DNA of 64,000 nt, from the NCBI GenBank assembly GCA_964650295.1, contig CAZYSY010000208.1, positions 35 to 64,034 on the forward strand. Direction: 5' to 3'. How positions within the stretch are numbered: the first letter of the stretch is position 1; the number at the start of each line of letters is the position of its first letter. This DNA comes from an uncultured Caldilineales bacterium. Its GTDB lineage: Bacteria; Chloroflexota; Anaerolineae; J102. The notes under the pieces were generated by a model. That model ran no database searches. It worked only from the letters and a program-made list of their open reading frames with translations, and was not told the origin of the DNA. Position numbers and translations under genes: made by a program. Positions 3,248 through 36,444 of the stretch are shown here, piece after piece.

Positions 3248-6127
3248 CTAATTTGTGCCCGGCGTCAATTTAAAATCGAATTCGCCAACTCGATTGGAAG
3301 GTGGAGATGCGTCGCCATTCAGATAGCCAAGCACGACATAAAAGTAGTTCTGTACATCGTTGCCTAATACGCCTGAGTCGAGATAGGTCATTTCTCCAGG
3401 GGATGCAGGTTCAGTGCTGAGTAACGATCCTTCTCCTACAGCGGGATTAAAGTAGGGCGATGTATCGCGCCAGATTTGGTATGCAGAATTGGGATCGGCA
3501 TGTTGCCAACGTAGCAAGGCGTCGCTGGTTCCACTCTTTTCGATGGCAACATCAGGTGCCACAGCGGGAGCACAGGCGAGCGGCTGGCCGCTGAACGGTG
3601 TATATTTGAGGGTCAGCGTGTTGGTTACGGGGGTGGAATACGTGAAACCGCTGCTCCCATCGGCATTTTCAATACCGACCAAAGCAGTGTGCGGATTACT
3701 CAAACTTTTGTATTGCACGACAACGGAGCTGCTATTGTTGTTCAGCACGATTTCGAAGGTTTCCGGGTCTCCATTTGGCCAATGTTGCACCTGATCGTAT
3801 TCGATTACGAAACGTCCATCTCCCAAATCTTTGGTATAAATTGCCCCTTGGTTATTCTCTGGATTCAGATCCATCGCCAAAGCATAGACGGCATTGTTTG
3901 GAGGCCCTTCGAAGGGTATAATGCCATGCAATCGATCGTAACCTACACCAAAGGATATGAATCCGTTAGAACCGATATACACATCGTTGTAGCTGTTGCC
4001 GTAAAAGGTGAACGTGAAAGGAAGCGCCACCTTTTTGTTGTCATCATCATCAAGCGAGTGGGATGTGCCATCACTGGCATCAATCCAGTTGTATTCAGCG
4101 GAGCAGGAGTCGCCACCATCACCAAGTGCATAGTCTGGAGCTGGGTCCAGGCTAAAGTTATGGGTCGTTGGGCCGGAGACAGTGACTGTGGTCTTGGTTT
4201 TAGCATAGCCTCGAGCAGAGACTTCAATTACACGATCGCCATGTGGAACACTAGCAAGAATATACTCACCTGAGCTGGTTGTCGTATCTGTGATGTAAGC
4301 AGTGAAGTCCTCGACGAGTTTCACTACCGCCCCCTCAATGGTTGGTGCCGGTGCGCTGTTTTCCTCCACGACGCCTGAGATTTGATCGGCAGCCAGCGCT
4401 GATAATGGAATGTTTTGAGTTGTGGTGACATCTTGGGTGACGCTAATGCTTGTCGGTGTCGAGTCCGAATAGCCGAATGCTTCTGCATGGATGTCATAGT
4501 TTCCATTGCCAATGATAAATGTATAGTTGCCTGAGTCGTCGCTGGACTGCATAAAGGTGTGGCCATTTCGTGTGATGTAAATTTTGGCCCCAGAAATAGG
4601 TTGACCGGTGACGGCGTCAGTGACAGTCCCCTCAATAATTCCGGCATTCATAGCCATCTCCACCGCCTCCAATAGATTGATTCGGCCCCAGCCAAAAGCA
4701 TTGTTGGGCACCTCGGAACCAGGCACGCCGCCACAGGTTTGGTTACTGGTGAGATGTACCGCGGTGGCTCGAAAAATTTCCTCGATCATATCCACTTGTC
4801 CAATAAGATCGGGTTCAGCTGAGAGAAGTACAGCCACTGCACCTGTGACATGGGGGGCAGCCATTGAAGTGCCAGACATAACAGTGTAGTTGTCCCCGGG
4901 ATAAGATGAGCCGATATTGACGCCGGGAGCGCTCACCTCTGGGCCGGGACGTCCAGTAAACGGATTGGGACCCCGACTGCTGAAATTAGCAATGCCATCA
5001 CCAGAATCGGTCGCGCCAACGTTGTATGAGTTTATGTTGTCACCAGGGGAGCCAAGTGTACCGCATTCGCTGCCCTCGTTGCCAGCAGAGAACACGGGTA
5101 CGATTCCTGCTGCTCTCCATGACTCAACCGCATCCAAATAGTAGGTGCGGCCACCTGGCCCGCCCCAAGAATTGTTCACCACTTGGGGGCGTTTGGAAGC
5201 GTCTGGGTTATCACCGTTAAGGTCTGTGGGAGCTAACATCCATTGCATGGCTGCCATCAAAGTCTCGCTGTCAGGGCAGCAGCCCAGGGCGTGAATCCAT
5301 TTGGCTCCCGGCGCAACGCCGATGTCGCCATACAGCGCGCTTCCCGAATTGCCGCCTGCCACGGTGCCTGTAGTGTGCGTGCCATGTCCGTTATCATCGC
5401 ACGGCACGCCCGGGGTACTGCACAAGCTGGCAGGATCATACCAATTATAGTTGTGATTGGCGGTGCTACCATTCCAACCCCGGTAATGATCTTTTAGGGC
5501 GGGATGATCCCATTGGACTCCCGTATCTACCACGCCGGCAACGATCCCCTGGCCGGTAAAACCATACGTCGACCATACTTGATCAGCTCCTATCTTCTCA
5601 ATTCCCCAGCTAAAGTCCAGTTGCGGGGTTTCTGCGTTTACCTCTTGAGGCGGCTCAGGTGGGTACACCTTGCCGGCTGGCACAATGCGGTCAACATTGG
5701 GGTGGCGTGCGATGGCTTCGGCAGCGGTTAGATCTCCTGTGACATAGATGACGTTGGCGATCCAGAATGGCCGATAGTGGCTGATGTTGCCTGGAATTGT
5801 ATGATTGGCAAGTTTGTTCAGTAAGTCGGCTTGAGAACGTTGTGCAGTTTTTTGCAGACGTTCTACCACGAAACGACCTCGTTCATCCCAATCTCTAATG
5901 CTTTTAGCCTTGGTTAGGTCAGCATGGTCCTTCATGTACACAACGAAGGTGACTTCGCCTTCAAGACGTGCTTCAAAACTTTGGTATACCGCAGCATCGA
6001 TGTTGTCAGCATAGACCTTACTATCCAACATATCATTTCTAAACAACAACCCAACGAACAATATTCCTACAAGTCCGATAATGAATATAGACGAAATAGT
6101 ACGGTAATGAGATAAGAATTTCCACAT
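3248..6127 (-). CDS. Secreted subtilisin-like serine protease (peptidase S8) with N-terminal I9 propeptide-like region and C-terminal beta-sandwich domains
   Basis: The catalytic triad motifs DTG, HGTHTTG and SGTSMAAPHV are present. The start was moved to ATG at 6125-6127 (MWKFLSHYRTISSIFIIGLVGILF, signal anchor), preceded by GGAG; the track ORF begins 14 codons upstream. Confidence 0.9.
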   Translation of the reverse strand: MWKFLSHYRTISSIFIIGLVGILFVGLLFRNDMLDSKVYADNIDAAVYQSFEARLEGEVTFVVYMKDHADLTKAKSIRDWDERGRFVVERLQKTAQRSQADLLNKLANHTIPGNISHYRPFWIANVIYVTGDLTAAEAIARHPNVDRIVPAGKVYPPEPPQEVNAETPQLDFSWGIEKIGADQVWSTYGFTGQGIVAGVVDTGVQWDHPALKDHYRGWNGSTANHNYNWYDPASLCSTPGVPCDDNGHGTHTTGTVAGGNSGSALYGDIGVAPGAKWIHALGCCPDSETLMAAMQWMLAPTDLNGDNPDASKRPQVVNNSWGGPGGRTYYLDAVESWRAAGIVPVFSAGNEGSECGTLGSPGDNINSYNVGATDSGDGIANFSSRGPNPFTGRPGPEVSAPGVNIGSSYPGDNYTVMSGTSMAAPHVTGAVAVLLSAEPDLIGQVDMIEEIFRATAVHLTSNQTCGGVPGSEVPNNAFGWGRINLLEAVEMAMNAGIIEGTVTDAVTGQPISGAKIYITRNGHTFMQSSDDSGNYTFIIGNGNYDIHAEAFGYSDSTPTSISVTQDVTTTQNIPLSALAADQISGVVEENSAPAPTIEGAVVKLVEDFTAYITDTTTSSGEYILASVPHGDRVIEVSARGYAKTKTTVTVSGPTTHNFSLDPAPDYALGDGGDSCSAEYNWIDASDGTSHSLDDDDNKKVALPFTFTFYGNSYNDVYIGSNGFISFGVGYDRLHGIIPFEGPPNNAVYALAMDLNPENNQGAIYTKDLGDGRFVIEYDQVQHWPNGDPETFEIVLNNNSSSVVVQYKSLSNPHTALVGIENADGSSGFTYSTPVTNTLTLKYTPFSGQPLACAPAVAPDVAIEKSGTSDALLRWQHADPNSAYQIWRDTSPYFNPAVGEGSLLSTEPASPGEMTYLDSGVLGNDVQNYFYVVLGYLNGDASPPSNRVGEFDFKLTPGTN

Positions 6128-6325
6128 GGTTAATCTCCTGGTGCAGTTTGGGAATGCGGTTAGGTGCAAGTATAGGCGAAGTTTTTCATCGGAGCAATTT
6201 TTGTCAATTGTAGCAAGGGCATCAATTCACTGCACATGTGGCGTTTGATGCCCATTAACCATTCATGGCTCACCCTACCTAGATTCCGAGCCCATCTCTC
6301 TCAACCTAATCTTGAGAAGGAACAA

Positions 6326-17476: not shown

Positions 17477-17850
17477 GATGTCCTTCTCCGGCGGGGAATG
17501 ATGTTAGATCGTAATTGGTAGGCTCTGCCAACCGCCACCCATCGGGCCTGCCCAGGTTCAATTTCTGTAGGGAGGTGTTTTTTCAGTGAGCTGACGTTAC
17601 ATAGAGATTCTACCTCACGATAGTGGTGCAAGGCCAACATAATCGCAGCCATCAGATCTGGCGGGATGCTCGCGTCGGCGCGTGCCTCAGTTTTGGGGGA
17701 TAAATGCGCCTTTTTTTCCTCTCTTGCCAATGCGCGTCGGTCAATTTGTTGAAAAATGGCGATAGCACCCCAGAGCATGGTTAGAATAAGAAAGACGAGG
17801 CCCATGCCGACTACCATGAGCAGCATGCCAAATTGTAAATCCTGTCTCAT
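17473..17850 (-). CDS. Small membrane subunit of Na+-decarboxylase (OadG-like)
   Basis: A single N-terminal TM helix (LLMVVGMGLVFLILTMLW) in a protein of 125 aa, positioned between the carboxyltransferase and biotin-carrier genes. Confidence 0.5.
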   Translation of the reverse strand: MRQDLQFGMLLMVVGMGLVFLILTMLWGAIAIFQQIDRRALAREEKKAHLSPKTEARADASIPPDLMAAIMLALHHYREVESLCNVSSLKKHLPTEIEPGQARWVAVGRAYQLRSNIIPRRRRTS

Positions 17851-17910
17851 AAGAGAAGCTCCACTATGGATAAAAGCAAAAAAGAACCGATCTCTGTTGA
17901 AAAGACATCG

Positions 17911-19455
17911 TCAGACGGGTATCAGTCCATGTTTCTTTGGAGGATTTTGTTGAACCTTTGTGCGCAAATAGGCCAACGATCGAATGAGCCTGGGTCTGGT
18001 TTCTCTGGGGTCGATAATATCATCTATGAAACCAAGTTCAGCGGCGATGTACGGATTAAAGAAGGTCTCGCGATAATCTTGCACAAATTGCGCTTCCATC
18101 CGAGCAGGATCTTGGGCCTGGGCAAGGTCCTTGCGATGTAAGATGCGCACCGCCCCCTCAGCACCCATGACGGCAATTTGGGCCGTTGGCCACGCAAATG
18201 CGAGATCGCTACGCATGGCCTTAGAGCTCATGGCGATGTAAGCCCCCCCCATCGCTTTCCGTAATACCACGGAAATTTTGGGAACAGTAGCTTCAACATA
18301 TGCATAAATAACCTTGGCTCCATGTCGGATGACACCGTAATGTTCCTGGTTGACTCCGGGCAAAAAGCCGGGGGTATCAACAAAGGTGAGGAGTGGAATG
18401 TTGAAGGCGTCGCAGATACGAATGAAGTGAGCGATTTTATCGCTGGCATCGATGTCCAGCACGCCCGCCAGAAACGCAGGCTGATTTGCGACGATACCCA
18501 CGACGTATCCATCCATACGTGCAAATCCGACCACTGCATTGCGAGCAAAATAGGGCTGCACTTCCAGAAAACTACCATAATCTACCACTGCCTGGATCAC
18601 CTGCTTGATTTCGTAGGATTGATCCTCTTGCGCTGGGACAATACTCAATAGGGATTCATCGCGTCGATCAGGTGGATCGGTGGAAATGGCATGGGGCGGA
18701 TCCTCCGTGTTGTTTTGCGGAAGGTAACTGAGTAGCAACTGTACAATCTCCAGGGCATGATGCTCATTTTCAGCCAAGAAGTGAGCTACACCGCTGTGTG
18801 CGTTGTGCACCATGGCTCCCCCAAGGTCCTCGGTAGTGACCTCTTCGCCTGTCACAGCCTTTACGACTTCGGGGCCGGTAAGGAACATGTAGCTGGTGTT
18901 TCGTGTCATGATGACAAAATCGGTGAGGGCGGGGGCGTAAACTGAACCACCTGCCGTTGGGCCCAACATCACCGAGATTTGTGGAATGACGCCCGAAGAG
19001 AGCACATTGCGCGTAAACATTGAGCCATATCCGGCCAGTCCTCTAATCCCTTCCTGGATACGTGCCCCGCCTGAATCCATCAGACCTATGATCGGAGCCC
19101 CTGCCTCCAACGCTAAATCTTGGAGCGCAACGATCTTGCGAGCGTGCATTTCTGAAAAAGTCCCCCCTAGCACCGTGAAATCTTGAGCGTACACCGCCAC
19201 CTGTCGACCATCGATGGTACCGAATCCGGTTACAACGGCGTCACCAAAAAATCGCTTATTCGCCATTCCCATATCCGCTACTTGATGCTTGACAAACATT
19301 CCTAGCTCTTGAAATGAGCCAGGATCTAACAATTTTTCCAATCGTTCCCGTGCTGTCAATTTTCCCATCGCATGCTGCTTTCTTACCCGAGCTTCTCCGC
19401 CTCCTTGCAGTGCTTGTTCTTTCTTTTGATGTAATTGGGCGAGATGATCCTTCAT
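17911..19455 (-). CDS. Acyl-CoA carboxyltransferase (methylmalonyl-CoA decarboxylase alpha / propionyl-CoA carboxylase beta family)
   Basis: Two carboxyltransferase halves are visible (…GGARIQEG…, …GGAYIAMSSK…). The start was moved to ATG at 19455 (MKDHLAQLHQKK); the track start at 19521 is a TTG. Confidence 0.9.
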   Translation of the reverse strand: MKDHLAQLHQKKEQALQGGGEARVRKQHAMGKLTARERLEKLLDPGSFQELGMFVKHQVADMGMANKRFFGDAVVTGFGTIDGRQVAVYAQDFTVLGGTFSEMHARKIVALQDLALEAGAPIIGLMDSGGARIQEGIRGLAGYGSMFTRNVLSSGVIPQISVMLGPTAGGSVYAPALTDFVIMTRNTSYMFLTGPEVVKAVTGEEVTTEDLGGAMVHNAHSGVAHFLAENEHHALEIVQLLLSYLPQNNTEDPPHAISTDPPDRRDESLLSIVPAQEDQSYEIKQVIQAVVDYGSFLEVQPYFARNAVVGFARMDGYVVGIVANQPAFLAGVLDIDASDKIAHFIRICDAFNIPLLTFVDTPGFLPGVNQEHYGVIRHGAKVIYAYVEATVPKISVVLRKAMGGAYIAMSSKAMRSDLAFAWPTAQIAVMGAEGAVRILHRKDLAQAQDPARMEAQFVQDYRETFFNPYIAAELGFIDDIIDPRETRPRLIRSLAYLRTKVQQNPPKKHGLIPV

Positions 19456-19570
19456 TGGGTCACCTAAAAAGGATGTTGAGTGAAAAGGAATATCTACGAA
19501 TTTGTTCCTTATTGTAAGCAAATGTGAGCAATTCTACAAAGTTTGATGTCTCAAAATTCTCCTCCTTCCG

Positions 19571-19752: not shown

Positions 19753-20301
19753 ATGAAAAGTAATCACCCTGACGTCGCGGAGATTCTTATCTCGGCTAAT
19801 GCACTGCATAAACGAGTTGAAGCTTTGGGCGAGGAAATCACAGCCGCGTATGCTGGGCAGGAACCGCTATTACTCGCCGTGCTTAAAGGTAGCGTCGTTT
19901 TTATGGCTGATCTGATGCGGCAGATTTCAGTTCCTCATGCTATCGATTTTATGGCAGTTTCTAGCTATGGTGCAGCGACGGAAAGCTCGGGAGTTGTGCG
20001 AATTCTAAAAGATCTGGATGAGCCGATTGAAGGGAAAGATGTTCTCATCGTTGAGGATATTATTGATAGTGGGCACACCTTGGCGTATTTGCGCGGGTTG
20101 TTGTTGGCGCGAAACCCCGCAAGCCTACGTATTGTGACCTTGCTTAGCAAACCTTCCCGTCGTGAAGTGGATGTGCCTGTCGATTGGGTAGGCTTTGAAA
20201 TCCCCGATAAATTCGTCATTGGTTATGGTTTAGATTTTGATGAATACTATCGTGATCTGCCATACATTGGAGTATTGAAGGAGCATGTTTACGGTGATTG
20301 A
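19753..20301 (+). CDS. hpt: Hypoxanthine-guanine phosphoribosyltransferase
   Basis: 'VLIVEDIIDSGHTL' PRPP-binding motif. The start was moved to ATG at 19753 (MKSNHPDV), preceded by GGAG. Confidence 0.9.
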   Translation: MKSNHPDVAEILISANALHKRVEALGEEITAAYAGQEPLLLAVLKGSVVFMADLMRQISVPHAIDFMAVSSYGAATESSGVVRILKDLDEPIEGKDVLIVEDIIDSGHTLAYLRGLLLARNPASLRIVTLLSKPSRREVDVPVDWVGFEIPDKFVIGYGLDFDEYYRDLPYIGVLKEHVYGD

Positions 20302-22418
20302 GCGCTAAAAGGGAGCTGTAGCGCCGGGTCTCCGAGGAGCACAAATGTGTGGATAATGTCCTCCTGGCCTGGGTCAGTTGGATCGAGCGCTCGGACGGCA
20401 TTCATAAGCGCTTCGCCAAGCGTCTGGGTACGCCCAAAGATCTCTGTGCCAAACAGCGCTTGTGCCATCACTTGCTGGTTATTCGGATACGTTTCTCCCG
20501 TGGGAAATAGCCCTGCCACAGCCCCTTTGCCTGGCGCAAGCACCAGCGCTTCACCGAGTGACGTTCGTTTGGGATGCTGAAAATAGCCATTGAGACAGGC
20601 CCAAACAAACATAATTGGAAGCTTCCCTTCTTGTTTCAAGTTGTCGACGTCATCAATGGTAAAGATTGATTCCTTGGCCCAAATATCGATCGCGCCATGC
20701 CCCATATAACTTACCAGCGCCCGACCATCATTGATATCTTGAAGCAACTCCGGTCGCACATCTCTATCTTGTGAGGCAACCAAGTTTTCGCTTTCGAATT
20801 CCGGCGGGATATTGCTGATGATATCTTGATTGAAGGTCGTGAAAAAGATCTCGTCGTCATCAGCTACAAAAAGTAACTTTCTAAGCCAATCCCCTTTGGG
20901 ACGATTCTTCTCGTAGAGGATTGTCTTGCTGACAAGGGCTCTCATCTCCGCGGATGTTTGTGCTGGGAATCGGCCTACGGCCATGTCGGGCAAACCATCG
21001 CCATCTAGATCAACCATTGCATTATCGCTAGCGGTTTCACCCATCACCTGTGTGGCAACGAATGCCGTGGGTATGAGATTTTTATTAGGGGCGTCGGCTA
21101 GATATCCCAGCGGATCGTAACTGGCGTCCCCAGCCAAAAGCAAAAAACGCGGCGAAGGTTCGGGCCAGCTACTAACGGCCCAACGCAAAAAATCAGTGAT
21201 AGCTTTTGGTGACTGTTTGCCATCACTGAATTTTAGGTAGATTTGCTCCGTCGTCACAACCATAATTTTCAGCCCTTGTGTTTCGCGCCAATCCAACAAG
21301 GGTTGTAAAGCCTCTGTCATTTCAGGTAAAGTTACGACAATGTAATCCACGCTTGACGAGGGGGCTGTTAATGCCGGCGGGGCTAAGGCCATACTCGTGG
21401 GGCGCTGTATATCATTGGTAAAGATGATGTATTTGCGTTCCTCTACATTCGACTCTTGAAAAGCAATGGTTTTGCTGTGAAAGGGATCGATTTCAATGAA
21501 TTCTAGTTTTTGGGGTTGCAAACCATCAGTTACGTCCCAAATTGAGATGGGCTTGCCGGTGCTGTTTTCTATCTCTAGTGCCTTTCTGTTAGTATCAATT
21601 AGCAATTGATCGTCATCGAATATCAGCCGCCGCTCATATTGGATACTGATTTTATCTAAATATACCAAATCTGCAATGGCGCCTGTATCCCCAGGAGCAG
21701 TAATCGTCAATTCGTTGCTTGGCGTCAGTATTCCAGGTGGGATTGTTATCTTTACCCTATGTAGGCCCTTTCCGTCCCATTTACTCTCCTGTACTTGCTG
21801 TCCGTTAATGGCGTAAATAAGATGGTGGTCGGGGTTTTCCGCCGATTCTGTAGCGGCCCACAGTGTAACATTCAGAATCGCTACCCCTTCAGTGGTGTCT
21901 GGCGTGTTTATTCGAATGGTGGTTTCTGCTGGGGCAAAGAGACGCTGGCCTAGCCAAGGATCTCCTTCGCGAACTTGTGCCAGATAGGTATCATTAGTCT
22001 CAATGGTTACAGTGTCGGTAAAACTTCGAGCGGGTGCAACTTCAAGGGGAGCCACTTGGCGGGATTCTATTCTTGCAGTGTCACCAGGGCCGTAGTGCAG
22101 TAAGTAGGTTGATCGGTCGTCGTAGCGAGTATGCTCAACGTGACTATAAAATTGTATAGCTTTCTTTCGTCCATCAAGGATATTTAGTGGGATTTCTCTT
22201 TCGCCCTGGATCAAGTGGATATTACGCTCCTTTAATTCAGCTAGATCCCACCCAAATTTCCCAACATCCTTGGTTGTGATGGTGTAGACACCTGGTTTGG
22301 AGACGCGAATTATGACATCTTGGGGCTGGCCTGTGTCACTGTTACGATGACACGCTGAAAAGATAAAAATGAACGCCAGCACCAAAATGCCAACAAGGAA
22401 GCTATGAATACGACGCAT
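20289..22418 (-). CDS. Lipoprotein, clan CD cysteine peptidase of the C25 (gingipain/PorU-like) family, paralog A
   Basis: N-terminal lipobox (IFIFSAC). The C-terminal catalytic region has a His-Gly dyad (YMGHGA), Cys in 'WACLNGYF', and a terminal 'LLGDPALQLP' typical of the C25 domain end. Confidence 0.6.
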   Translation of the reverse strand: MRRIHSFLVGILVLAFIFIFSACHRNSDTGQPQDVIIRVSKPGVYTITTKDVGKFGWDLAELKERNIHLIQGEREIPLNILDGRKKAIQFYSHVEHTRYDDRSTYLLHYGPGDTARIESRQVAPLEVAPARSFTDTVTIETNDTYLAQVREGDPWLGQRLFAPAETTIRINTPDTTEGVAILNVTLWAATESAENPDHHLIYAINGQQVQESKWDGKGLHRVKITIPPGILTPSNELTITAPGDTGAIADLVYLDKISIQYERRLIFDDDQLLIDTNRKALEIENSTGKPISIWDVTDGLQPQKLEFIEIDPFHSKTIAFQESNVEERKYIIFTNDIQRPTSMALAPPALTAPSSSVDYIVVTLPEMTEALQPLLDWRETQGLKIMVVTTEQIYLKFSDGKQSPKAITDFLRWAVSSWPEPSPRFLLLAGDASYDPLGYLADAPNKNLIPTAFVATQVMGETASDNAMVDLDGDGLPDMAVGRFPAQTSAEMRALVSKTILYEKNRPKGDWLRKLLFVADDDEIFFTTFNQDIISNIPPEFESENLVASQDRDVRPELLQDINDGRALVSYMGHGAIDIWAKESIFTIDDVDNLKQEGKLPIMFVWACLNGYFQHPKRTSLGEALVLAPGKGAVAGLFPTGETYPNNQQVMAQALFGTEIFGRTQTLGEALMNAVRALDPTDPGQEDIIHTFVLLGDPALQLPFSAQSP

Positions 22419-22442
22419 GAATGATCAGCGATGCAAGTAAGG

Positions 22443-23204
22443 TTAGCTTTTGCGCCAAATGCGAACCGCAAAACCGCCAATGACGGCGGCTATGGCCAAG
22501 GCCGCTACGCCAAGGATGAGCAGAATTGTGTTGTGGCTGCTCGCAGTGTTAGCAGGTGGTGGGGGCACGCTGGCAGATGCAGATCCTCCGGAAGCAGACT
22601 GCGCCGCAGGTTTTTCGGCGCTAGTGGGATTTGCCTTCTCGACGTTTTGTGCGACAACCGGCGTTGAGGCGCTTTCTGTAGTTTGACTCGTCGATTCGGT
22701 CGCGATGGGGGAGGGCGCATGTTCTGTTGCCACGGGGGTGGAAGCAGCAGGCGTGTTGTCATCTTGCTGCTTCTCTGGAGTCGCAGACGGTTGTGTCACT
22801 TCAGGCGTTGGTGACTCTTGATTTGTGGAGGAAGAGTCGATACTGGCAGAAATTGGCCCCGCCGCCATGTTGGTAGCGCCGTTGACATCTTGCTCTTCCA
22901 GTTTGTACCAATAGGTCACCCCAGGTTGGGCGCTCGTATCGATGAATTGATAATGTTTACCCGTAACCGCATCTCCTTCTGCAGGAACCGCCTGCAATTG
23001 CTGATAGGTTCCGTCTTGGGCATCAGATCGGCTCAAAATGAACAGTGCGGTATCGATTTCGGTGGCTGTTTCCCATTCCAGATGAATCGAATTATCATTG
23101 ATTTGTCCGACGCGAAAATATTTGAGCGTAACTGCGCCGTAAACCGAAACAGGGACGAGGAGTGTGATCAAAAGAATTGCGAGTATGGTTCTTCGTTTCA
23201 ACAT
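22443..23204 (-). CDS. Cell-surface protein: signal peptide, FN3-like domain, Ser/Thr/Pro-rich linker, C-terminal TM helix plus basic tail (tripartite sorting-signal-like)
   Basis: MLKRRTILAILLITLLVPVSVYG signal. 'IHLEWETATEID…YQQLQAVPA…TYWYKLEEQDVNG' is FN3-like. A low-complexity S/T/P/A/E stretch of ~110 aa follows. The protein ends …NTILLILGVAALAIAAVIGGFAVRIWRKS. Confidence 0.6.
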   Translation of the reverse strand: MLKRRTILAILLITLLVPVSVYGAVTLKYFRVGQINDNSIHLEWETATEIDTALFILSRSDAQDGTYQQLQAVPAEGDAVTGKHYQFIDTSAQPGVTYWYKLEEQDVNGATNMAAGPISASIDSSSTNQESPTPEVTQPSATPEKQQDDNTPAASTPVATEHAPSPIATESTSQTTESASTPVVAQNVEKANPTSAEKPAAQSASGGSASASVPPPPANTASSHNTILLILGVAALAIAAVIGGFAVRIWRKS

Positions 23205-23240
23205 GAAGTGTCTCCAAGAGGGTGTGGGTGGACAATGCCA

Positions 23241-25550
23241 CTATTTTGCATAAACTTCCGCTCTCCCAGGTGTCTGCAGAAAGGGATTCCTGTTTTGTTT
23301 TGATATGGGAGAAAATAGGAAGTGTCTTGTTGCTGATTCTGGCAGTTGTAGGGTTGGGTCGCCGAAAAGTGTCATGGTTTCAATAAGGTAATGTTTACCG
23401 TATTCCTCATAGAAACGTCTCTTTGTGATTAGTAGGGCCTCCCCCAAGGTCCTCACGTTTTCGTCAAAAATAACTTCCATGAGGATGGCCCGAAATTGTG
23501 ACTGAATGAAAGTAATGCCCAGGCCTGTGGGAGAAATAGCTGCGATTGAGCCAGCATCTTTTTGGCGAAGCATGAATTCAGCTATTCCAGGCGTTCCTGG
23601 ATATGCAAAATAGCCATCCAGACAGTTGAAGGTGCTAACAAATGGATATTTACCTGCATTTCTAAGATTAACAATGTCTTTCAGTGACCAGCCTTCGCCT
23701 TTCATCCAGGTTGTAGGAGAACCATGTCCGGCATACTGAACCATCCATACGCCACGGTTGATGGCGCGTGTGATGCCATCACGGACATCCTCAGCTTCCG
23801 GATGAGTAATATTGCGATAGATGCGCTGAGGGATAAGATCGCCAGGCAAGTAATTGGTGATGATTTCTTCGCTCAACCTGGCAAAGTCCCCAGCGGGAGG
23901 GTCGTAATCTGCGACAAAAGCTGCCCGGCGCTGCCAATAGTGATTTCGTACATTTTCATCATAAGTGACCAATTTGTCAACTACTGCATTGGCTTCATCA
24001 AGGTTATTGACAGGGATGCGACCTACTGCCAACTCTGGATCGCCATCTTCATTCAGGTCGGCGTAACGGTTATCATCCGGCACTTCACCTTGCCATGGAT
24101 CTTCCCAGGCCAGAAAAGGAGGCACAATGATTGGCTCTGGTTGATATTTGTCAGGGGCGAATCCCTTAAAATTCCAATGCCCATCACCAAAGAGCGTCAA
24201 ATAATGTGGTTTCGGTTCGGGCCAGTTTTCGATGGCCCATTTCATGAATTTCACAATGGCGCGTGGGTGATAGATACCGTCATTAAATTCGTCAACCAAG
24301 TCTTGAAAAAATACTATCCGCGAGCTATACCCGCGCTTTTGGTGCCATTCTGATAAGCGTTGGGCTGCCGCTTCCAATTCGGGGGCGGTCACGATAATAA
24401 CCTCGGCCCCATGAACTGGCTGGCGCAATTCGGTTTGCTGGGGGCTTAGCTCAATAGAGTCTGGCCCGTGAATGGCTTCCTCCTCCTGCAACCAAAACCT
24501 GTCTCCTGGAGAATCCTTGACGCGGAAGAGAATCGCTTTGGCTCTACCTGGAATAGCTGCTGAATGCGTAAGCCTGCGCGGTGCATAGGGGTTGCTGATA
24601 TCTAAGATTTCGACTCTAGTTTCTGTCCATCCTTTTACTAAGTATTCGTGAGGACCGGGCGATTCTGTCCGGAAGTCAATTTGTCCCTTCCAAGCCACAA
24701 ATCGGCGACGATAATGCATGTCCCAATGATTGACAAAAACCTTGTCGATTTTGTTCTTTGGTTTCAACATTGCGCCGATAGTAACCGTATTGACGCCGTG
24801 AGTTATTAGATCAGCGGGCACTGTGGCGGTAAAGATGTTTAGACGCGTACCTGACCAGATTTCATCCAAAAGCTTTGTGCCATTCAATTCCACTATTGTT
24901 CGATGTTCTACCGGGCTCTGCGAATATTCCTCGACAATAAGCTTGGCAGGCTGACTCGCGGCTGGATAAGGTATCGTGGATGGATATGTGCCTGTAATGA
25001 CAAGTTGCTTTGAATTCATACGCAGAATGTCCCAAAACCACGTATCCAATGAGTATTCTCTTTCACGTTGCTGCGTAAACCAGTAGTTGTTTTGCTCTGC
25101 ATGAATGGTGGTTGCAAAATCGGTGGGAGAAGATAGTTTGAAACTTGGGGCGGCATTAATTTCAGGAATGCGTGGTCCGGGCTCCGCACCAATCGTCAGC
25201 CAATAAACATTTTCGTCAGTGTATTTTTCGTTTTGAATGGTGCTGTGATATTTTTGTCCAAAGAACTCGATATAGTCTCGCTTATCGAATCTCCCATCCT
25301 CCTCGCCAGCAACAAAAATGGCTATGGGTATCCCCTGGCTGGTGAGTGAGAAGGTTCGGGGATCGATGCTGACAGGCTTAATGCCTGCTGATTCAAGATC
25401 GCTAGGCGTAATGCGGACAATACCGTCTTGTGTTACGCCGATGCGCAATCTGTAGGTTTCCTGCGCCCGCACAGGTTCTGTCCAAAAGGTGAAATTGCCG
25501 AGGGCGAGTAGGGCAACGAGTGTGCTGATGGCTGTAAAGATTTTTTTCAT
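23241..25550 (-). CDS. Secreted clan CD cysteine peptidase of the C25 (gingipain/PorU-like) family, paralog B
   Basis: Signal peptide, then 'YAGHGSPTTW' and 'TFNCLDGYF', ending 'LFGDPTLQLPE'. It is colinear with paralog A. Confidence 0.6.
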   Translation of the reverse strand: MKKIFTAISTLVALLALGNFTFWTEPVRAQETYRLRIGVTQDGIVRITPSDLESAGIKPVSIDPRTFSLTSQGIPIAIFVAGEEDGRFDKRDYIEFFGQKYHSTIQNEKYTDENVYWLTIGAEPGPRIPEINAAPSFKLSSPTDFATTIHAEQNNYWFTQQREREYSLDTWFWDILRMNSKQLVITGTYPSTIPYPAASQPAKLIVEEYSQSPVEHRTIVELNGTKLLDEIWSGTRLNIFTATVPADLITHGVNTVTIGAMLKPKNKIDKVFVNHWDMHYRRRFVAWKGQIDFRTESPGPHEYLVKGWTETRVEILDISNPYAPRRLTHSAAIPGRAKAILFRVKDSPGDRFWLQEEEAIHGPDSIELSPQQTELRQPVHGAEVIIVTAPELEAAAQRLSEWHQKRGYSSRIVFFQDLVDEFNDGIYHPRAIVKFMKWAIENWPEPKPHYLTLFGDGHWNFKGFAPDKYQPEPIIVPPFLAWEDPWQGEVPDDNRYADLNEDGDPELAVGRIPVNNLDEANAVVDKLVTYDENVRNHYWQRRAAFVADYDPPAGDFARLSEEIITNYLPGDLIPQRIYRNITHPEAEDVRDGITRAINRGVWMVQYAGHGSPTTWMKGEGWSLKDIVNLRNAGKYPFVSTFNCLDGYFAYPGTPGIAEFMLRQKDAGSIAAISPTGLGITFIQSQFRAILMEVIFDENVRTLGEALLITKRRFYEEYGKHYLIETMTLFGDPTLQLPESATRHFLFSPISKQNRNPFLQTPGRAEVYAK

Positions 25551-25565
25551 AGCACTTGTTGTGGG

Positions 25566-27377
25566 TTATTCTGCCAGTCCGCGGGCGTGTTCGATATAGT
25601 CTAGACTTTGGTGTCTGAAGTATGTATTATACAGGGTTGCATAGTGTCCCCCCAAGGTTATAAGACTATCATGATCCCCCTCCTCAATAATTTTACCATG
25701 ATCAATCACCAAAATGCGATCTGCCGCCTTTACTGTGGAGAGACGATGTGCAATGAGTATGCTGGTCGTGCGGGATAAAATTAAATTTAGCGCCTGTTGT
25801 ATTTGCCATTCGGTAAAGGGATCGATACTGGCTGTGGCCTCGTCCAAAATAAAGATTGTCGGTTTATGTGCCAGAACACGCATCAAAGCAACCAGTTGGC
25901 GCTGCCCCATCGAGAGCCGCTTTCCCCGCTCGCCCACCTCGGTATACAATCCCTCAGGCAGTGTTTCCAACCAGTCTCCGTTACCAATTTGACGGGCAAG
26001 CTCAAGGATTTCTTCATCGCTAGGATTGGGATTGGCATACCGAATATTGTCCGCTACAGTCCCCGAGAATAAGAAGGGGATTTGAGAGACAATCCCCAAT
26101 TGTTTGCGATAAGAGGCTAGATTTAATGTGCGGATATCATGGCCATCCACCCATATCCGGCCAAGCTGAAACTCGTAAAAACGAGCAATGAGTTTGGCGA
26201 TGGTGGTTTTGCCAGCACCTGTGTGTCCGACCAAGGCAATGGTCTCTCCAGCACTGATATGCAAATTGAAGTGAGACAGGATGTTTTCACCCTCAACATA
26301 ACGAAACGTTACATTCTCAAACCGGATTTCCCCTGAAAGCTGTGGAGGGATTATGTTGTCTCTTTGGATAACATTGTGCTCCGCCTCGATAAGTGCAAAA
26401 ATGCGCTCAGCCGCCGAAAGTCCTGCCTGGATTTGAGCAGAAAATGCGGCCAGGTTTAGCACAGGGAAGAAGAATCGCTCCAGACTACTCAAGAAAAGAT
26501 ACCAGGCGCCAGCAGTCACAATGCCTTGCATTACCGTAAGGCCGCCTGCATAAACCAAACCTGCAGTAGCGACACCTCCTAAACCATTGAGCAGAGGAAA
26601 AACCGAGGCAAGTACGAAACCTCGGCGAACATTCACCTGGAAGCTTTCTTCATTGGCTTGCACGAATTCCTGGTAGATGGCTGATTCCTGACGATAATTT
26701 TTGGCGACGGCGATGCCGCCAACACTTTCCTTGATTCTCGCATTGACCACCGCCATGGCCCGCATTCCTAGCCGCGTGTATTTGCGCATGATTGAGCGCA
26801 ATGCGCTGGCAGCGAAAAATAGCACCGGCAAAAATAGGAAGATCCCCATTGCTAAACGCCATTCAATCTTGACCAAAAGCGCAGCCAAGATACCCGCCTG
26901 AATAAACTGCGAGGTGACATCAGTGACCAGGGTAACCACCTCACCAAAGTCGCGCGTATCAGAAGTGATGCGCGAAACGATACGCCCCGAAGCATATTTG
27001 TCAAAAAAGGAAAGATCGTGGTTCACCGAGGCGCGAAACGCATCTATGCGGAGATTTAATACGACGTCGCCAATGGTGCGCACGGTAATGCGACGCCGCA
27101 TCCAATTAGCTCCCCAGGTTAATACGCCGAAGAGGAACACCGCTGTGGTGAGTGCTGCCAATAAGATGGGATCGTTGCGGGCCTGAAGCATATCGATGCC
27201 ACGCCCAACCAACACCGGGAAACTTGCGCTTGAACCCGCGATTACCACTAGCATGACTGTGATGAGAATGAGTCGGCGTGCGTAAGGTTTAAAGTACGCA
27301 CCGATGCCCGCCAGTAATTCGCGATCACTGTACTGGCGATCATATCCTTCCACATCGAGGTTGGCAAAAAATCCCAT
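25566..27377 (-). CDS. ABC transporter, fused permease/ATPase (type I exporter half-transporter)
   Basis: 6 TM helices, then Walker A GHTGAGKTT, the LSMGQRQ signature and Walker B ILDEATAS. Confidence 0.9.
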   Translation of the reverse strand: MGFFANLDVEGYDRQYSDRELLAGIGAYFKPYARRLILITVMLVVIAGSSASFPVLVGRGIDMLQARNDPILLAALTTAVFLFGVLTWGANWMRRRITVRTIGDVVLNLRIDAFRASVNHDLSFFDKYASGRIVSRITSDTRDFGEVVTLVTDVTSQFIQAGILAALLVKIEWRLAMGIFLFLPVLFFAASALRSIMRKYTRLGMRAMAVVNARIKESVGGIAVAKNYRQESAIYQEFVQANEESFQVNVRRGFVLASVFPLLNGLGGVATAGLVYAGGLTVMQGIVTAGAWYLFLSSLERFFFPVLNLAAFSAQIQAGLSAAERIFALIEAEHNVIQRDNIIPPQLSGEIRFENVTFRYVEGENILSHFNLHISAGETIALVGHTGAGKTTIAKLIARFYEFQLGRIWVDGHDIRTLNLASYRKQLGIVSQIPFLFSGTVADNIRYANPNPSDEEILELARQIGNGDWLETLPEGLYTEVGERGKRLSMGQRQLVALMRVLAHKPTIFILDEATASIDPFTEWQIQQALNLILSRTTSILIAHRLSTVKAADRILVIDHGKIIEEGDHDSLITLGGHYATLYNTYFRHQSLDYIEHARGLAE

Positions 27378-27484
27378 GAGATGGCTTTTGTGTGGGCGTG
27401 CTAATAGTTGACGGCTGATGTTCGCTCATAGAACAATACGAACCTGCTGAGTCGCTTGTCAGCCATTGTTGTATTGTAAATCTA

Positions 27485-29281
27485 CTAACCAGCAAAAATG
27501 CGGCGGTAGGCTTCGGATGTGCGCAAGAGTGCTTCATGATCGCCTAATGCCACAATGCGTCCCTTGCGCAAAACAACAATTAGATCAGCCCAACGAATCT
27601 GTGAGAGACGATGAGTGATAATAAAGGTGGTGCGATCGCGAGACGCAGCGAAAATGGCTCGCTGAATTTTATCTTCTGTGGCGCTGTCGATAGCACTCGT
27701 AGAATCATCCAGGATGAGGATGGTAGGATCGGTGAGGAATGCGCGAGCCAGAGCCAGACGCTGTCGCTGTCCACCCGACAGCGTGACCCCGCGCTCACCA
27801 ATAACGGTCTGATATCCATTTGGCATATCCATGATGAATTCATGGGCCTGGGCGGCTTTGGCCGCTACAATGATTTCCTCCATGGTGGCGTCAGGTCGAC
27901 CAAATGCGATGTTTTCTGCGACGGATCGAGAAAACAGGAATATGTCCTGCTCGATGATGGAAATCTGACGACGCAGCGCCTCTATATCCCACTCCCGCAC
28001 ATCAATGCCATCAATCAATACGCGCCCAGACGAGACATCGTAGGTGCGATTGATGAGTTTTGCCAGAGTTGTTTTGCCAACACCTGTCTGTCCGACAATG
28101 GCAACTCGCTGGCCGGATCTCACATGAAAGTCGATATCTTGCAGAATTGGCTCAGCATCTGGGGTATAGGTAAAGAAAACATGATCGAAAGTCACATCAC
28201 CAAGCATCTTCTGGGCATGGCCACCAATGTTTTGGTCGATTTCCGTTTCGGTATTGATAAGTTCAAGAATTCGGCGTGCTGCCGAGATACCCGAAGAAAC
28301 GCGTGAGTAGGCGAATAGCGATACAAAGGTGGGAAAGCCCAATAAAGCCAATAATCCCATATAAGCTACCACATCCCCCGTGTCAATTAGACCGCGACGA
28401 AAAAGAATGACCGCATGCAGGAAGCCAGCAGCATTGGTCAGCGCTAACAAGAGCAAGGGAAGAAAACGCGCCTCGACATCACCCTGGTGGATGAAGGCGT
28501 CACGAAACGCTCGCGCCACTTGCGCAAATCGTCGCACTTCCTGTTCTTCTTGAGCCGCCCCCTTGACGATTTCGATGCCATCAAGTACTTCGGCAAGACG
28601 CGTGTTCATAGCACCAAAAGTATCACGCACACGTCGAGTAATCGGCTGCAGCTCATGAAGATATTGCGCCAGCGCTCCCATATAAAGTATCGAGAAGACA
28701 GCCGGAGCCAAAACTAGCGAGAAATGATAACGGGGCGCCATGATCATAGGCATAAGCATGAACATCATCGAACCAATGACGAGATTGACGCCTGGGTTCA
28801 TCATGAAGTTGATTTCCCTAACGTCGTTAGTGGCTCTAGCCATCGTATCACCCACGGGTTGCAAACTATGAAACATCATACTTTTACCCAGCAAGCTAAC
28901 GTACAGCTCGTCTCGAATATCCCTTTCGAGGCATTGCCCAATAAGCTCAGCGCTAAAATTACGCATGAGTTGTAGACCGCTCCGCACCAACTGCGAAATC
29001 ATAATAAGAATGGCCGATCGGATAAGGATAGCAGGCAGGGGAGGGTGTGTCAGGATGCCGTTAAATGCCTGTCCAGTAAGGATAGGGATTGCTGAAGCAA
29101 GCAGAGCGTTCGATAATGCTCCCAGAATTAACACCCCCCACAAATACCAATACCGGATGGCATGAGAAAACAACCAACGCACTGGCCCCTTACGATTTGT
29201 GTGGTAATGATCTGGAACGTTAAATTCGGTGTAGTGCGGCGGTGGTGATATAGAAGTCAGAGATGCCATAACACCGGGCAT
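27485..29281 (-). CDS. ABC transporter, fused permease/ATPase (partner half-transporter, probable heterodimer)
   Basis: Walker [10 protein letters not shown], signature LSGGQRQR, Walker B ILDDSTSA. It is adjacent to and co-oriented with the 25566-27377 gene. Confidence 0.9.
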
Positions 29282-29557: not shown

Positions 29558-31057
29558 TTAACTTCCTGGCACCACGTCGTAGGTAAATTTTCCTATCAGT
29601 CGTGATGGGCCTGATATGTCTCCATCCGCATTTTTGCTGCGAACTTGATAGTAGGTGCCTCCTGCTTGCGTAGCGACGCCAGAGTCAGTCCAACTGTTGG
29701 TAGTAACTTCGGTGTGGAAATGTTGGATCGCTGGTGAAAAAAGAGGCCTTTCTGTATTTCTGTAGATGCGATAGCTCATTCCCTGGTAATCATCCCACTG
29801 GATAATTACATCCGCACCATTCAGTGTAATCGTGGGGTATAGAGTGGGAGGCTGTTGGATGGGGGTAGCGCTGGGATCGAGCTGCCAGAGTCGTCCTACT
29901 AGACCGCGATCGCCGACGACGATCTTGTCTTGATCGGGCCAGTAGCTTAGGGTGATGAAGTCGCGATCGGATGCCACCATGGTTTCCCAGGTTTCCAAGT
30001 CATGCGACCGCAGGATGCGGTTATCCTCAGTAACCAGGTAGAGTCTGTTGGCCGCATCAATGGCAAAGGGGTTATATACCCATGTCTGCACAGAAAAGTC
30101 GGGGAAAGGGTAGGTGATTGTACTGCCATCTGTCTGAATAGCAATGATTCCATCCCTGGCCGCTGCAAGGGCTAGAAGCTGGTTGTTATAGACGTATAGA
30201 CGAGATCGACAATTTGTCTTCCCGTTACAACCAGCAAGGCGCTGCCACACACTACCCCCATCAGAACTTTCAGCTATTCCGCAGGGTGACCCATAATCAT
30301 CGCTCCAGGTTGCATAAAGCTTGCTGTTGAATTGAATAATATCATATGTCCGATAATTCCCCACTCCGTCATCCTTATCCGCCATTCGGGTCCAAGTCTC
30401 ACCAAGGTCTGTACTGCGAAAAATTTCACCTGTCCAGGTTTTGTAGTCGCCTGTGTGGGAACTCACTGCGACATAAAGCCCATTTGCAGTACTTTCTATG
30501 CCCCAACTGTGAATCACGTTGGGCAGATTGCGATGTTTGACAATTGTTCCCGTCGTTGGAGTATAGACATAAGTATTTCCCCAATCCCATGGGTGTCCCC
30601 CGGGGAGGGCTGGATCAGTGGGGTCTGGTCCCGGGATGTGTAAATGCTGGGTGTCTACATCTCGAACCATATCGATGAAGCCCTGTTCGCTAGGTTGGTA
30701 AATCGCACTGACGACGCTGGAGTGATAGCTTGCAAAAAGAGAGCCGTTGAATTCTGAGGGACGTGCTTTTCCAAATCCGAGGTAAAGTTCGTTTCCCCAA
30801 GGCAAGATAGAGTAGTTGCTAAAGTAGACTGGATCGGGCTGGTAGCCCGTGTTGTCCTCAAACCATTGAGCGTAATCGCATCCTGGTCTTAAGTCTTGCA
30901 GGTTGTGAACACCTGGCGCTGGTGGGGATGTCGTGGGGCAATCGGATGTCGCAGCAGTGGGCTGTTTGAGTGGGGTAGGTTGTACGTGTGGGAGGATCAT
31001 GCTGCCACATGACGCGATCAAAAAAACGAACAATAAAATAAACATTGAAAATTTCAT
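29558..31057 (-). CDS. Lipoprotein with BNR/Asp-box (sialidase-like beta-propeller) repeats and a C-terminal FN3-like domain
   Basis: The start was moved to ATG at 31057 (MKFSMFILLFVFLIASC lipobox, AAGGA upstream). Asp-box motifs STDLGETW and SSDGGSVW are present. Confidence 0.65.
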   Translation of the reverse strand: MKFSMFILLFVFLIASCGSMILPHVQPTPLKQPTAATSDCPTTSPPAPGVHNLQDLRPGCDYAQWFEDNTGYQPDPVYFSNYSILPWGNELYLGFGKARPSEFNGSLFASYHSSVVSAIYQPSEQGFIDMVRDVDTQHLHIPGPDPTDPALPGGHPWDWGNTYVYTPTTGTIVKHRNLPNVIHSWGIESTANGLYVAVSSHTGDYKTWTGEIFRSTDLGETWTRMADKDDGVGNYRTYDIIQFNSKLYATWSDDYGSPCGIAESSDGGSVWQRLAGCNGKTNCRSRLYVYNNQLLALAAARDGIIAIQTDGSTITYPFPDFSVQTWVYNPFAIDAANRLYLVTEDNRILRSHDLETWETMVASDRDFITLSYWPDQDKIVVGDRGLVGRLWQLDPSATPIQQPPTLYPTITLNGADVIIQWDDYQGMSYRIYRNTERPLFSPAIQHFHTEVTTNSWTDSGVATQAGGTYYQVRSKNADGDISGPSRLIGKFTYDVVPGS

Positions 31058-35980: not shown

Positions 35981-36444
35981 TCATGTTCTCATCATGCAGC
36001 ACGCCTGTGTTTTGGCCTATCTGCGGCTGGCTCCCTAATGTGCCGAGCACACATGAATGAACCCCTCCAGGACCCGGCTATGCCTCTAGCACGGATCAAC
36101 ATTAAAAAGAACCTGCTCACAAATGCTCTTACCCTCATGCTTACCTGTTGTTCGTCTGCAACAAGAATAGCCTTGATTCAGTTGCTGCTTCAAAAAACGT
36201 TTGCTTAGGCAATGGCTTTATGCTAAACTTAAAGCGTTGCTCCCTTTCATATGCGTGATGCCCGAGGAACGTTTTGAGCCAACACCAGACCCAGGGGAGC
36301 CGGGTCATGCACTGGCCAACGTGATAGCCCTTGATTGGCAAGACTGAGGCTAGGCGTAGGCTCCCACCTGTTTCATACAGGTTCAAAAGCACCTGGGCAC
36401 ACGGTATGGAGGGGGGCGGAGAAATCACAATCTTTTTTCCACCT

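Follow-up and report, generated by a model that had tools for sequence, protein, structure and literature searches.

Why would a bacterium of the phylum Chloroflexota carry two C25 cysteine peptidases that resemble PorU from the T9SS (type IX secretion system), which has been described as a Bacteroidota system (PMC10202324), on either side of one small membrane protein? The question is raised by a five-gene cassette in a 64,000-nucleotide stretch of DNA from an uncultured Caldilineales bacterium (contig CAZYSY010000208.1), which was analyzed as a whole and is referred to below as the window. The genes follow one another on the minus strand as ABC half-transporter 1, ABC half-transporter 2, the peptidase C25-B, a 253-aa protein with a fibronectin type III (FN3) domain and a transmembrane (TM) helix (FN3-TM), and the peptidase C25-A (Table 1). 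The first-pass annotation of this DNA had described five tightly spaced minus-strand genes in this order, and all five open reading frames (ORFs) were found where it had placed them, with intergenic gaps of 107, 15, 36, and 24 bp. Because a scan for promoter and terminator consensus sequences gave no signal above shuffled controls, the operon structure is drawn from spacing and synteny only. The base composition is uniform over the region. Relatives whose flanking genes differ (L001, L002/3, and L005, where L-numbers denote the loci of relatives) have the five genes in the same order, which is thus not due to chance; more distant loci have the order C25B-...-FN3TM-C25A. We conclude that the five genes form a single conserved cassette in a Chloroflexota bacterium of the Anaerolineae type and that the core of this cassette is the phylum-wide triad C25-B/FN3-TM/C25-A.

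Table 1. Genes and domains of the cassette, and window proteins that carry a candidate C-terminal tag
Feature	Coordinates	Strand	Evidence
ABC half-transporter 1 (598 aa), first cassette gene	27485..29281	-	PF00664 and PF00005 (transmembrane domain and ATPase)
ABC half-transporter 2 (603 aa), presumed heterodimer partner	25566..27377	-	ABC_membrane and ABC_tran
C25-B (769 aa), secreted PorU-like C25 cysteine peptidase	23241..25550	-	PF01364; PorU profile; PorU 6za2 best PDB match
C-terminal extension of C25-B after GDPTLQLP (...ATRHFLFSPISKQNRNPFLQTPGRAEVYAK), degenerate internalized short tail	23244..23336	-	Comparison of C-termini
FN3-TM protein (253 aa)	22443..23204	-	ORF; AlphaFold model; Foldseek
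FN3-like domain of FN3-TM (residues 23-122; motifs WETATE and YWYKLE)	22839..23138	-	Model and PDB fold matches
C-terminal TM helix of FN3-TM (ILLILGVAALAIAAVIGGFAV) with basic tail RIWRKS, read as permanent membrane anchor	22446..22526	-	Model helix 224-252
C25-A (709 aa), lipoprotein PorU-like C25 cysteine peptidase	20289..22418	-	PF01364; PorU profile; PorU 6za2 best sequence and fold match
Lipoprotein (499 aa; Met at 31057; LIASC lipobox) ending in a 'GEFDF' domain (...SRLIGKFTYDVVPGS)	29558..31057	-	Hidden Markov model (HMM) E 4e-23
Secreted S8 subtilase (973 aa) ending in a 'GEFDF' domain (...SNRVGEFDFKLTPGTN)	3248..6169	-	Pfam S8 and CarboxypepD_reg; HMM E 4e-30

Two C25 peptidases and their conserved setting

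Both enzymes matched the full Pfam profile of family C25 (PF01364), with E-values of 3e-85 for C25-A and 7e-80 for C25-B and scores of 287.2 and 269.4 bits against a gathering cut-off of 23. The catalytic dyad is intact in each of them. The His and Cys residues are located in YMGHGA and VWACLNG of C25-A and in YAGHGS and TFNCLDG of C25-B, and these segments align with YTGHGS and DVACVNG (His211/Cys244) of the gingipain RgpB. None of the aligned paralogues (43 A-type and 28 B-type proteins) lacked either residue. The earlier assignment of two paralogous peptidases to family C25 (clan CD) was thereby borne out. The possibility that one paralogue is an inactive pseudo-enzyme was ruled out, because the dyad is conserved in both.

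The best sequence match in the PDB was PorU (6za2) for both enzymes, ahead of the gingipains. PorU was also the best fold match of the C25-A AlphaFold model (pLDDT 90.6), with ~780 aligned columns that included the N-terminal beta domains (E 7e-32). The same model showed the caspase-like C25 fold when compared by Foldseek with RgpB (E 4e-19; template modeling score, TM (target), 0.65) and Kgp (E 1e-16), but these alignments extended over only ~380 columns, i.e., the catalytic half. The enzymes are therefore closer to PorU than to the gingipains, by sequence in both cases and by fold, N-terminal domains included, for C25-A. The catalytic fold and the His211/Cys244-type dyad are common to the gingipains and the window enzymes. 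The latter differ in having PorU-like N-terminal domains and in lacking the gingipain prodomain, the adhesin domains, and the T9SS C-terminal domain.

Comparison with the curated PorU profile NF033707 gave a divided result. Both enzymes aligned with the profile (291.2 bits for C25-A and 256.7 bits for C25-B), but neither reached the family cut-off of 420 bits. The alignments started at model position 8 or 102 and ended at ~736 of 1095, with C25-B covering positions 8-734. Positions ~737-1095 (~360 aa), which form the C-terminal third of PorU, were unmatched in both enzymes. This profile coverage indicates that the N-terminal and catalytic parts are PorU-like and that the C-terminal third of PorU is absent. 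Both C25-A and C25-B stop ~5-35 aa past the catalytic domain, and no NCBIfam model of the T9SS C-terminal domain matched either of them. The profile alignments of both enzymes and the fold comparison of C25-A recovered the multidomain layout of PorU, with N-terminal beta domains followed by the C25 domain. Judged from their sequences, both are C25 members built like the N-terminal two-thirds of PorU, and they are not PorU by the curated test.

PorU cleaves off the C-terminal domain at a loose site between T/E/D/N and G/A/S and joins the protein to an amine of a glycan. It has the C-terminal signal of its clients, is itself unprocessed, and forms dimers that regulate its activity (PMC10202324). 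The window enzymes have in common with PorU the C25 domain with its His/Cys dyad, the colinear N-terminal beta domains, and an extracytoplasmic site. They differ from it in their scores below the cut-off and in lacking the C-terminal third and the T9SS C-terminal domain that docks on PorV, in place of which the lipobox of C25-A, and perhaps the FN3-TM partner, would serve as the anchor. A further difference is that two paralogues and a dedicated membrane protein are always present here, and transpeptidation would be a putative activity. PorV, PorQ, PorZ, and Sov/SprA had no match among the window proteins scanned. Chloroflexota are not known to have a T9SS or anionic lipopolysaccharide (A-LPS).

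The full-length sequence identity of C25-A and C25-B is 28%, which marks them as old paralogues of the same layout. C25-A carries the lipobox FSAC and stops directly after GDPALQLP, and C25-B has a signal peptide without a lipobox. A lipobox was found in 89 of 119 C25-A homologues versus 0 of 30 B-type proteins. Scanning of one genome per species added 80 loci, and in these further loci the upstream peptidase was always more similar to C25-B and the downstream one to C25-A. The paralogues are differentiated, with fixed roles and a fixed order.

The membrane protein between the peptidases is equally constant. All 35 C25-A-type genes examined (600-830 aa) had directly upstream, on the same strand, a gene with the signal-peptide/FN3/linker/helix layout of FN3-TM. 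The co-occurrence of this gene with C25 genes is thus very strong and extends over several Chloroflexota classes; the first-pass annotation had put forward such a check for the C-terminal tail. The metagenome-assembled genomes (MAGs) with these loci were labeled Anaerolineae, Caldilineae/Caldilineales, Ardenticatenaceae, Chloroflexia/Chloroflexaceae, "Chloroflexota", and, in one case, Halieaceae; the closest relatives of the window were in MAGs labeled Anaerolineae or Caldilineae. At E<=1e-20, at least 394 database clusters were found for C25-A and at least 230 for C25-B. Names, where given, read "C25 family cysteine peptidase" or "hypothetical protein", and the proteins came from Chloroflexota MAGs. 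No description of the triad was found in the literature, nor anything relevant on C25/PorU or on C-terminal signals in Chloroflexota, which agrees with the earlier statement that such a system is undescribed outside Bacteroidota.

Several database labels of related sequences are probably erroneous. The MAG labeled Halieaceae contains a full FN3-TM/C25-A pair (L019), which is probably due to a binning or annotation error. The same applies to a C25-B homologue labeled as a Nitrososphaerales archaeon (P0368). The cluster representative of the window C25-A (P0159) is a shortened C25-A copy that JGI named 'muconolactone delta-isomerase', probably in error.

The two ABC chains each combine ABC_membrane and ABC_tran and are encoded by adjacent paralogous genes, as in heterodimeric ABC exporters. 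Both lack a C39 peptidase domain and scored below the cut-off of every NCBIfam exporter family; no substrate can therefore be assigned. An orthologue of ABC 1 was found directly upstream of the C25 triad in L002, L014, L015, L017, L018, L020, and L024, and one of ABC 2 in the same position in L001, L002, L005, L013-L018, L020, and L024. The ABC pair is co-inherited with the triad throughout the window clade despite differing flanking genes.

Outside the window clade, 22 loci, which we call canonical cassettes, have a PqqD-like gene (PF05402, 53 bits) as the immediate upstream neighbor of the FN3-TM gene. Many of these loci have, just before it, a gene for a small peptidase-like protein of the archaeal/SipW S26 type without an obvious N-terminal helix (PqqD/S26-like examples: L007 1646-1960; L010 1570-2421; L022 5144-5930; L056 1011-2475; L070 9296-10004; 17 more loci). 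In some of them there is a weak HprK-like gene, an oppositely oriented ABC-2 exporter, an extracytoplasmic function (ECF) sigma factor, or genes for envelope glycans, which include Wzz/tyrosine-kinase, GT2, LPG_synthase_TM, DUF4012, TMEM260-like O-mannosyltransferase, and GH99-LysM genes. Envelope and exopolysaccharide genes surround the canonical cassettes. In the window, PqqD, S26-like, and HprK-like genes are all missing, and the heterodimeric ABC pair is found instead.

The canonical cassettes pair a PqqD-like protein with peptidases, as do the split lasso-peptide B1/B2 systems and other PqqD-dependent systems, and, like systems of SipW-type signal peptidases with dedicated substrates, they include an archaeal/SipW-type S26-like gene, together with a weak HprK-like gene. 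These matches, however, are far below the family cut-offs, and the peptidases belong to C25 and are not transglutaminase-like. The PqqD-like, S26-like, and HprK-like genes suggest a cytoplasmic peptide-recognition step in the canonical cassettes.

The FN3-TM protein and its C-terminal tail

The AlphaFold model of the 253-aa protein, obtained with 14 homologues, starts with a signal helix at residues 2-16, continues with a sandwich of seven strands at residues 26-122 (pLDDT >90) and a disordered region at residues ~127-210, and closes with a C-terminal helix at residues 224-252. When the model was compared with the PDB by Foldseek, the top 30 or more matches were FN3 domains (TM (target) 0.6-0.78). 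No Pfam or NCBIfam model, the Pfam fn3 model included, matched this protein, so its FN3 membership is based on fold only. The linker of 104 aa contains 33% S+T and 63% S+T+P+A. Model, fold matches, and composition therefore confirm the predicted layout of signal peptide, FN3 domain, S/T/P-rich stalk, and TM helix with the tail RIWRKS.

The first-pass annotation had read this C-terminus as a sortase-style sorting signal. Classical sorting signals consist of a signature motif, a helix, and basic residues, in this order, and are usually common to several proteins. The 253-aa protein does have a hydrophobic helix and basic residues at its extreme C-terminus. It thus ends, like the substrates of the LPXTG/sortase, PEP-CTERM/exosortase, PGF-CTERM/archaeosortase, GlyGly-CTERM/rhombosortase, and MYXO-CTERM/myxosortase systems, with a low-complexity linker, a helix, and basic residues. 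It differs from them in that its tail has no signature motif and occurs on one window protein, with no known sorting enzyme matched in the window. As the earlier reader had noted, LPXTG, PEP, PGF, and GlyGly signatures are missing: none of the corresponding NCBIfam models matched. There was no signature motif before the helix in the 14-sequence alignment, where a single Pro within a Pro-rich stretch was the only feature, or in ~30 orthologous tails from the loci. The proposed search for further proteins that end in a hydrophobic helix and an R/K tail found none in the 64-kb window. Each cassette encodes one FN3-TM protein, and sortase, exosortase, and rhombosortase had no match among the window proteins scanned.

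The helix sequence is rich in small residues and conserved within clades, with GxAALxxAAxxG in the window clade and LIWxLLGxWF in others. This conservation favors a permanent packing helix over a discarded signal. Given the lack of a pre-helix motif, the single protein per cassette, and the helix conservation, the sortase-style interpretation is not supported, and the C-terminus of the 253-aa protein most likely serves as a permanent membrane anchor.

Full-length relatives of the 253-aa protein were found in only 14 database clusters. In these, the FN3 motifs WETATE and YWYKLE are kept, the linker is variable, and the protein ends with a helix and a short basic tail. The WETATE-type FN3 domain alone gave 10,007 matches at E<=1e-3 among 1.84 billion cluster representatives, many of them in tandem arrays. 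What lies downstream of the domain depends on the lineage: nothing or a short basic tail in Planctomycetota and Deltaproteobacteria, in other cases a helix with an Arg-rich tail, a C25 catalytic domain in Acidobacteriota, and, in Zixibacteria and Marinimicrobia (FCB-group MAGs), a separate domain that by eye looks like a T9SS-type C-terminal domain. The idea that the FN3 domain is analogous to the C-terminal domain of T9SS was considered and rejected, because the domain has an ordinary FN3 fold, belongs to a huge and often tandem family, and, in the FCB-group MAGs, is located upstream of the separate, putative T9SS-type domain. No NCBIfam model of the T9SS C-terminal domain matched it, and no such domain was among the listed PDB fold matches. 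The FN3 domain is a general extracellular module and not itself a sorting signal.

Other arrangements of the WETATE-type FN3 domain were also observed. In nine loci (L037, L038, L039, L045, L053, L060, L064, L073, and L078), it is the last domain of large secreted proteins from Planctomycetota (anammox), Deltaproteobacteria-labeled, and Acidobacteriota MAGs, followed only by short conserved tails (e.g., ...ATPRLIFGMGK and ...RSGGSEARRR). In three Acidobacteriota loci (L036, L047, and L054), it is fused N-terminally to a C25 peptidase. Ardenticatenaceae-like and Chloroflexia MAGs encode a second small protein (157-169 aa) upstream of the triad, in which a single WETATE-type FN3 domain lies between an N-terminal and a C-terminal helix (L042, L069, L072, L077, and L088, about 9850-10360 or 6100-6780; L025 3072-3545; L027 4623-5114). 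Its gene is preceded by a Wzz/tyrosine-kinase-like gene.

Two candidate C-terminal tags

Two better candidate tags were found on other proteins. The C25-B-type proteins of related loci usually end in a short tail, [VIF][YF]LP[LIVTN][VIT]x[KR]-COOH (e.g., ...IYLPLTIR and ...LFLPVVTR). The same tail ends non-peptidase neighbors, including cohesin-like proteins (L056), a glycosidase-like protein and a "choice-of-anchor Z"-like protein (L070), and a "choice-of-anchor L" protein (L083). The core motif started within the last 12 residues in 32 cases, compared with 0.37 expected from its internal frequency. The loci with the short tail are L010, L022, L024, L027, L028, L030, L031, L035, L042, L044, L052, L056, L067, L070, L072, L083, L084, L086, and L091. 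The tail was present in 0 of 122 C25-A homologues.

Among the 120 best database homologues of the window C25-B, 60 end in the short tail, 8 end in the domain described below, 26 (the window clade) carry an extension of 15-35 aa, and another 26 carry no tag. In the window clade, the extension ends in ..EPLTPPL or ..[IV]YA[KNY], most members having an internal Y[LT]P[LI]. In the window C25-B, this extension reads ...RHFLFSPISKQNRNPFLQTPGRAEVYAK, and the short tail is present only in a degenerate, internal form.

The second candidate tag is an FN3-like domain of ~90 aa, named here the 'GEFDF' domain, which ends in ...YFYVV.A.N..G.S..SNRVGEFDFALTPG-COOH. Its C-terminus can be written SNRVGEFDFxLTPG-COOH and its motifs PYF...YFYVV...NRVGEFDFxLTPG. 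Two proteins in the window end in this domain. One is the 499-aa lipoprotein, which had weak beta-propeller glycosidase-like matches and is encoded 276 bp upstream of the ABC pair; it is a possible sixth member of the cassette or a possible client. The other, the S8 subtilase, is a candidate client with a putative link to the cassette.

A metagenome scan (L094-L173) found 93 proteins with the 'GEFDF' domain; in 73 of these, at most 5 aa separate the end of the domain from the C-terminus. The carriers include ExeM/NucH nucleases, subtilases, and an alkaline-phosphatase-like protein, often encoded by adjacent genes. The clearest physical link of the tags to the triad is L145 (1123-18366 of contig FWPV01001388.1), where four 'GEFDF' genes lie immediately upstream of C25-B(...KVYLPLISR)/FN3-TM/C25-A and one of the four proteins also has a ...RVYLPAVWQ tail. 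'GEFDF' genes are located directly upstream of the ABC pair in the window, in L014 (2029-3627), and in L020 (468-3409).

The short tail and the 'GEFDF' domain are covered by no Pfam or NCBIfam model, and nothing on either of them was found in the full-text literature. They differ from the tripartite signals discussed above, the short tail being eight residues without a helix and the 'GEFDF' domain a folded domain. The logic of a shared C-terminal module on unrelated cargo is that of the T9SS C-terminal domain (PMC11285876, PMC10202324). Like that domain, an Ig-like 3+4 beta-sandwich, the 'GEFDF' domain is small, beta-sandwich-like, and C-terminal on unrelated exoenzymes and on some C25-B proteins. 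It differs in that its motifs are unrelated, it was not matched by any NCBIfam model of the T9SS C-terminal domain, and it occurs in a phylum not known to have a T9SS; its cleavage is putative. As PorU has the same signal as its clients and forms dimers, so C25-B shares its tags with neighboring exoenzymes and is one of two paralogues. The 'GEFDF' domain behaves like an uncatalogued C-terminal sorting or anchoring domain.

Possible functions of the cassette

The best reading of these observations, which we put forward tentatively, is a surface-anchored PorU-like processing complex. C25-B, FN3-TM, and C25-A would form this complex at the external surface of the cytoplasmic membrane, with C25-A tethered by its lipid anchor. 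FN3-TM would be a type-I membrane protein, held by its permanent C-terminal helix, with a probably glycosylated stalk of ~100 aa that would act as a spacer, so that the FN3 domain would lie inside the wall or past it. C25-B would associate with both of them. The complex may then act on secreted proteins as a specific PorU-type C-terminal processing peptidase and possibly as a transpeptidase. Its likeliest clients would be exoenzymes with the short tail or the 'GEFDF' domain, i.e., the tags that are found on C25-B too. In the least supported step, the ABC pair may transport a partner other than a protein, such as an acceptor molecule, out of the cell.

This reading is favored because both C25 enzymes have a conserved dyad and PorU as their closest solved relative, and because the paralogues differ in their anchor (a lipobox in A and not in B), keep a fixed order, and have FN3-TM beside C25-A in 35 of 35 cases. 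It is also favored by the tags, which are enriched at C-termini, present on C25-B and its neighbors, and located near triads, and by the position of the canonical cassettes among envelope and exopolysaccharide genes. A number of observations weigh against it. Both enzymes scored below the PorU cut-off, and the C-terminal third of PorU is unmatched in both. The window C25-B has only the degenerate, internal form of the short tail, and 26 of its 120 best homologues lack any tag. No conserved cleavage motif was found. Only 4 of the 80 metagenome 'GEFDF' loci include a C25 gene, most of these loci being short. The ABC pair is of a generic exporter type that gives no clue to a substrate. Finally, both tags could be non-covalent modules that bind the wall or the S-layer and need no peptidase. 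A more far-reaching version of the proposal appears doubtful to us. Here, the triad would be the sorting enzyme of a Chloroflexota-wide system that is PorU-like but has neither T9SS nor outer membrane; it would recognize the tag or tags on exoenzymes and on C25-B itself, cleave, and attach the protein covalently to a wall or sheath glycan, with the precursor supplied via the neighboring ABC and exopolysaccharide genes. That a PorU-like surface-protein system exists outside Bacteroidota is a broader suspicion, for which concrete candidate signals are now at hand.

The main rival explanation, which we consider possible though rather unlikely, is that the peptidases are nutritional surface proteases. 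In this case, the two enzymes would perform gingipain-like digestion, FN3-TM would be a tether or spacer, the tags would be retention modules, and the ABC pair would be unrelated but co-transcribed. C25 peptidases are potent secreted endopeptidases, RgpB and Kgp are clear structural matches over the catalytic half, and both window enzymes are predicted to be exported and look active. The nucleases, subtilases, and phosphatase-like protein among the tagged neighbors are exoenzymes typical of scavenging, a secreted S8 subtilase is also encoded in the window, and the ABC pair offers no functional clue. This explanation does not account for the strict order of two differently anchored paralogues around a membrane protein (35/35), for the likeness to PorU that includes the N-terminal domains, or for the PqqD-like, S26-like, and HprK-like genes and the envelope-glycan setting of the canonical cassettes. 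Another explanation is a system for the maturation and export of a small peptide or of a protein C-terminal fragment, in which, in the canonical cassettes, the PqqD-like, HprK-like, and S26-like proteins would act in the cytoplasm, an ABC transporter would export the product, the C25 enzymes would trim it outside the cell, and the window would represent a reduced version. The PqqD-like gene directly upstream of FN3-TM in 22 loci, the S26-like and weak HprK-like genes nearby, and the two different types of ABC exporter that adjoin the triad in different clades are consistent with such a system. It fits the canonical cassettes and not the window, which has none of the three genes. A candidate gene for a precursor peptide was not noticed, although no search was aimed at one. 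In the ABC proteins, a C39 peptidase domain is missing, and their scores are under the cut-off of every bacteriocin exporter. We regard this explanation as highly improbable.

There remains the proposal of the first-pass annotation, that the 253-aa protein is the dedicated substrate, cut near its helix and basic tail by one or both C25 enzymes and then released or attached to the wall. It is probably wrong, and we assign it a low probability. Of the three parts that make up a classical signal, the tail has the helix and the C-terminal basic residues. One-to-one pairs of enzyme and substrate occur in other sorting systems, and the adjacency with C25-A is absolute in our sample. PorU reads a folded beta-sandwich and a loose T/E/D/N-G/A/S site and needs no strict motif (PMC10202324). 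Nevertheless, neither the 14 database relatives nor the ~30 orthologues have a pre-helix motif, the conservation of the helix within clades suits a functional packing helix, and the tail is on no other window protein. Cleavage in the stalk would free only an FN3 domain of 100 aa with no evident function.

The cassette puts a PorU-type architecture into another setting: it is duplicated, one copy is lipid-anchored, and it is locked to a dedicated FN3 stalk protein. The arrangement is widespread in Chloroflexota (at least 394 C25-A-type clusters), whose envelope is poorly understood. Should it serve to process or attach proteins, the display of exoenzymes by these abundant filamentous bacteria would be accounted for, the known prokaryotic sorting signals would gain two C-terminal tags, and thousands of proteins now called "hypothetical" or "C25 family" could be better annotated. 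If the enzymes are only surface proteases, the triad would still be a conserved proteolytic module relevant to carbon turnover by Anaerolineae.

Three further features of the window were recorded. A 6S RNA (Rfam RF00013) is located at 36238-36419 on the plus strand; it matched over its full length with 50.7 bits against a gathering cut-off of 46.4 and was the only Rfam match in the window. A Na+-pumping decarboxylase-type gene set, composed of carboxyltransferase, OAD gamma-like, biotinyl carrier, and OAD beta genes, occupies 15861-19521 on the minus strand, adjoins an hpt-like gene, and is syntenic with L001. Two adjacent multiheme cytochrome genes lie at 47413-51656 on the minus strand, one with a cytochrome b561-type membrane domain and the other with MtrC/MtrF-like domains. 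This pair suggests extracellular electron transfer.

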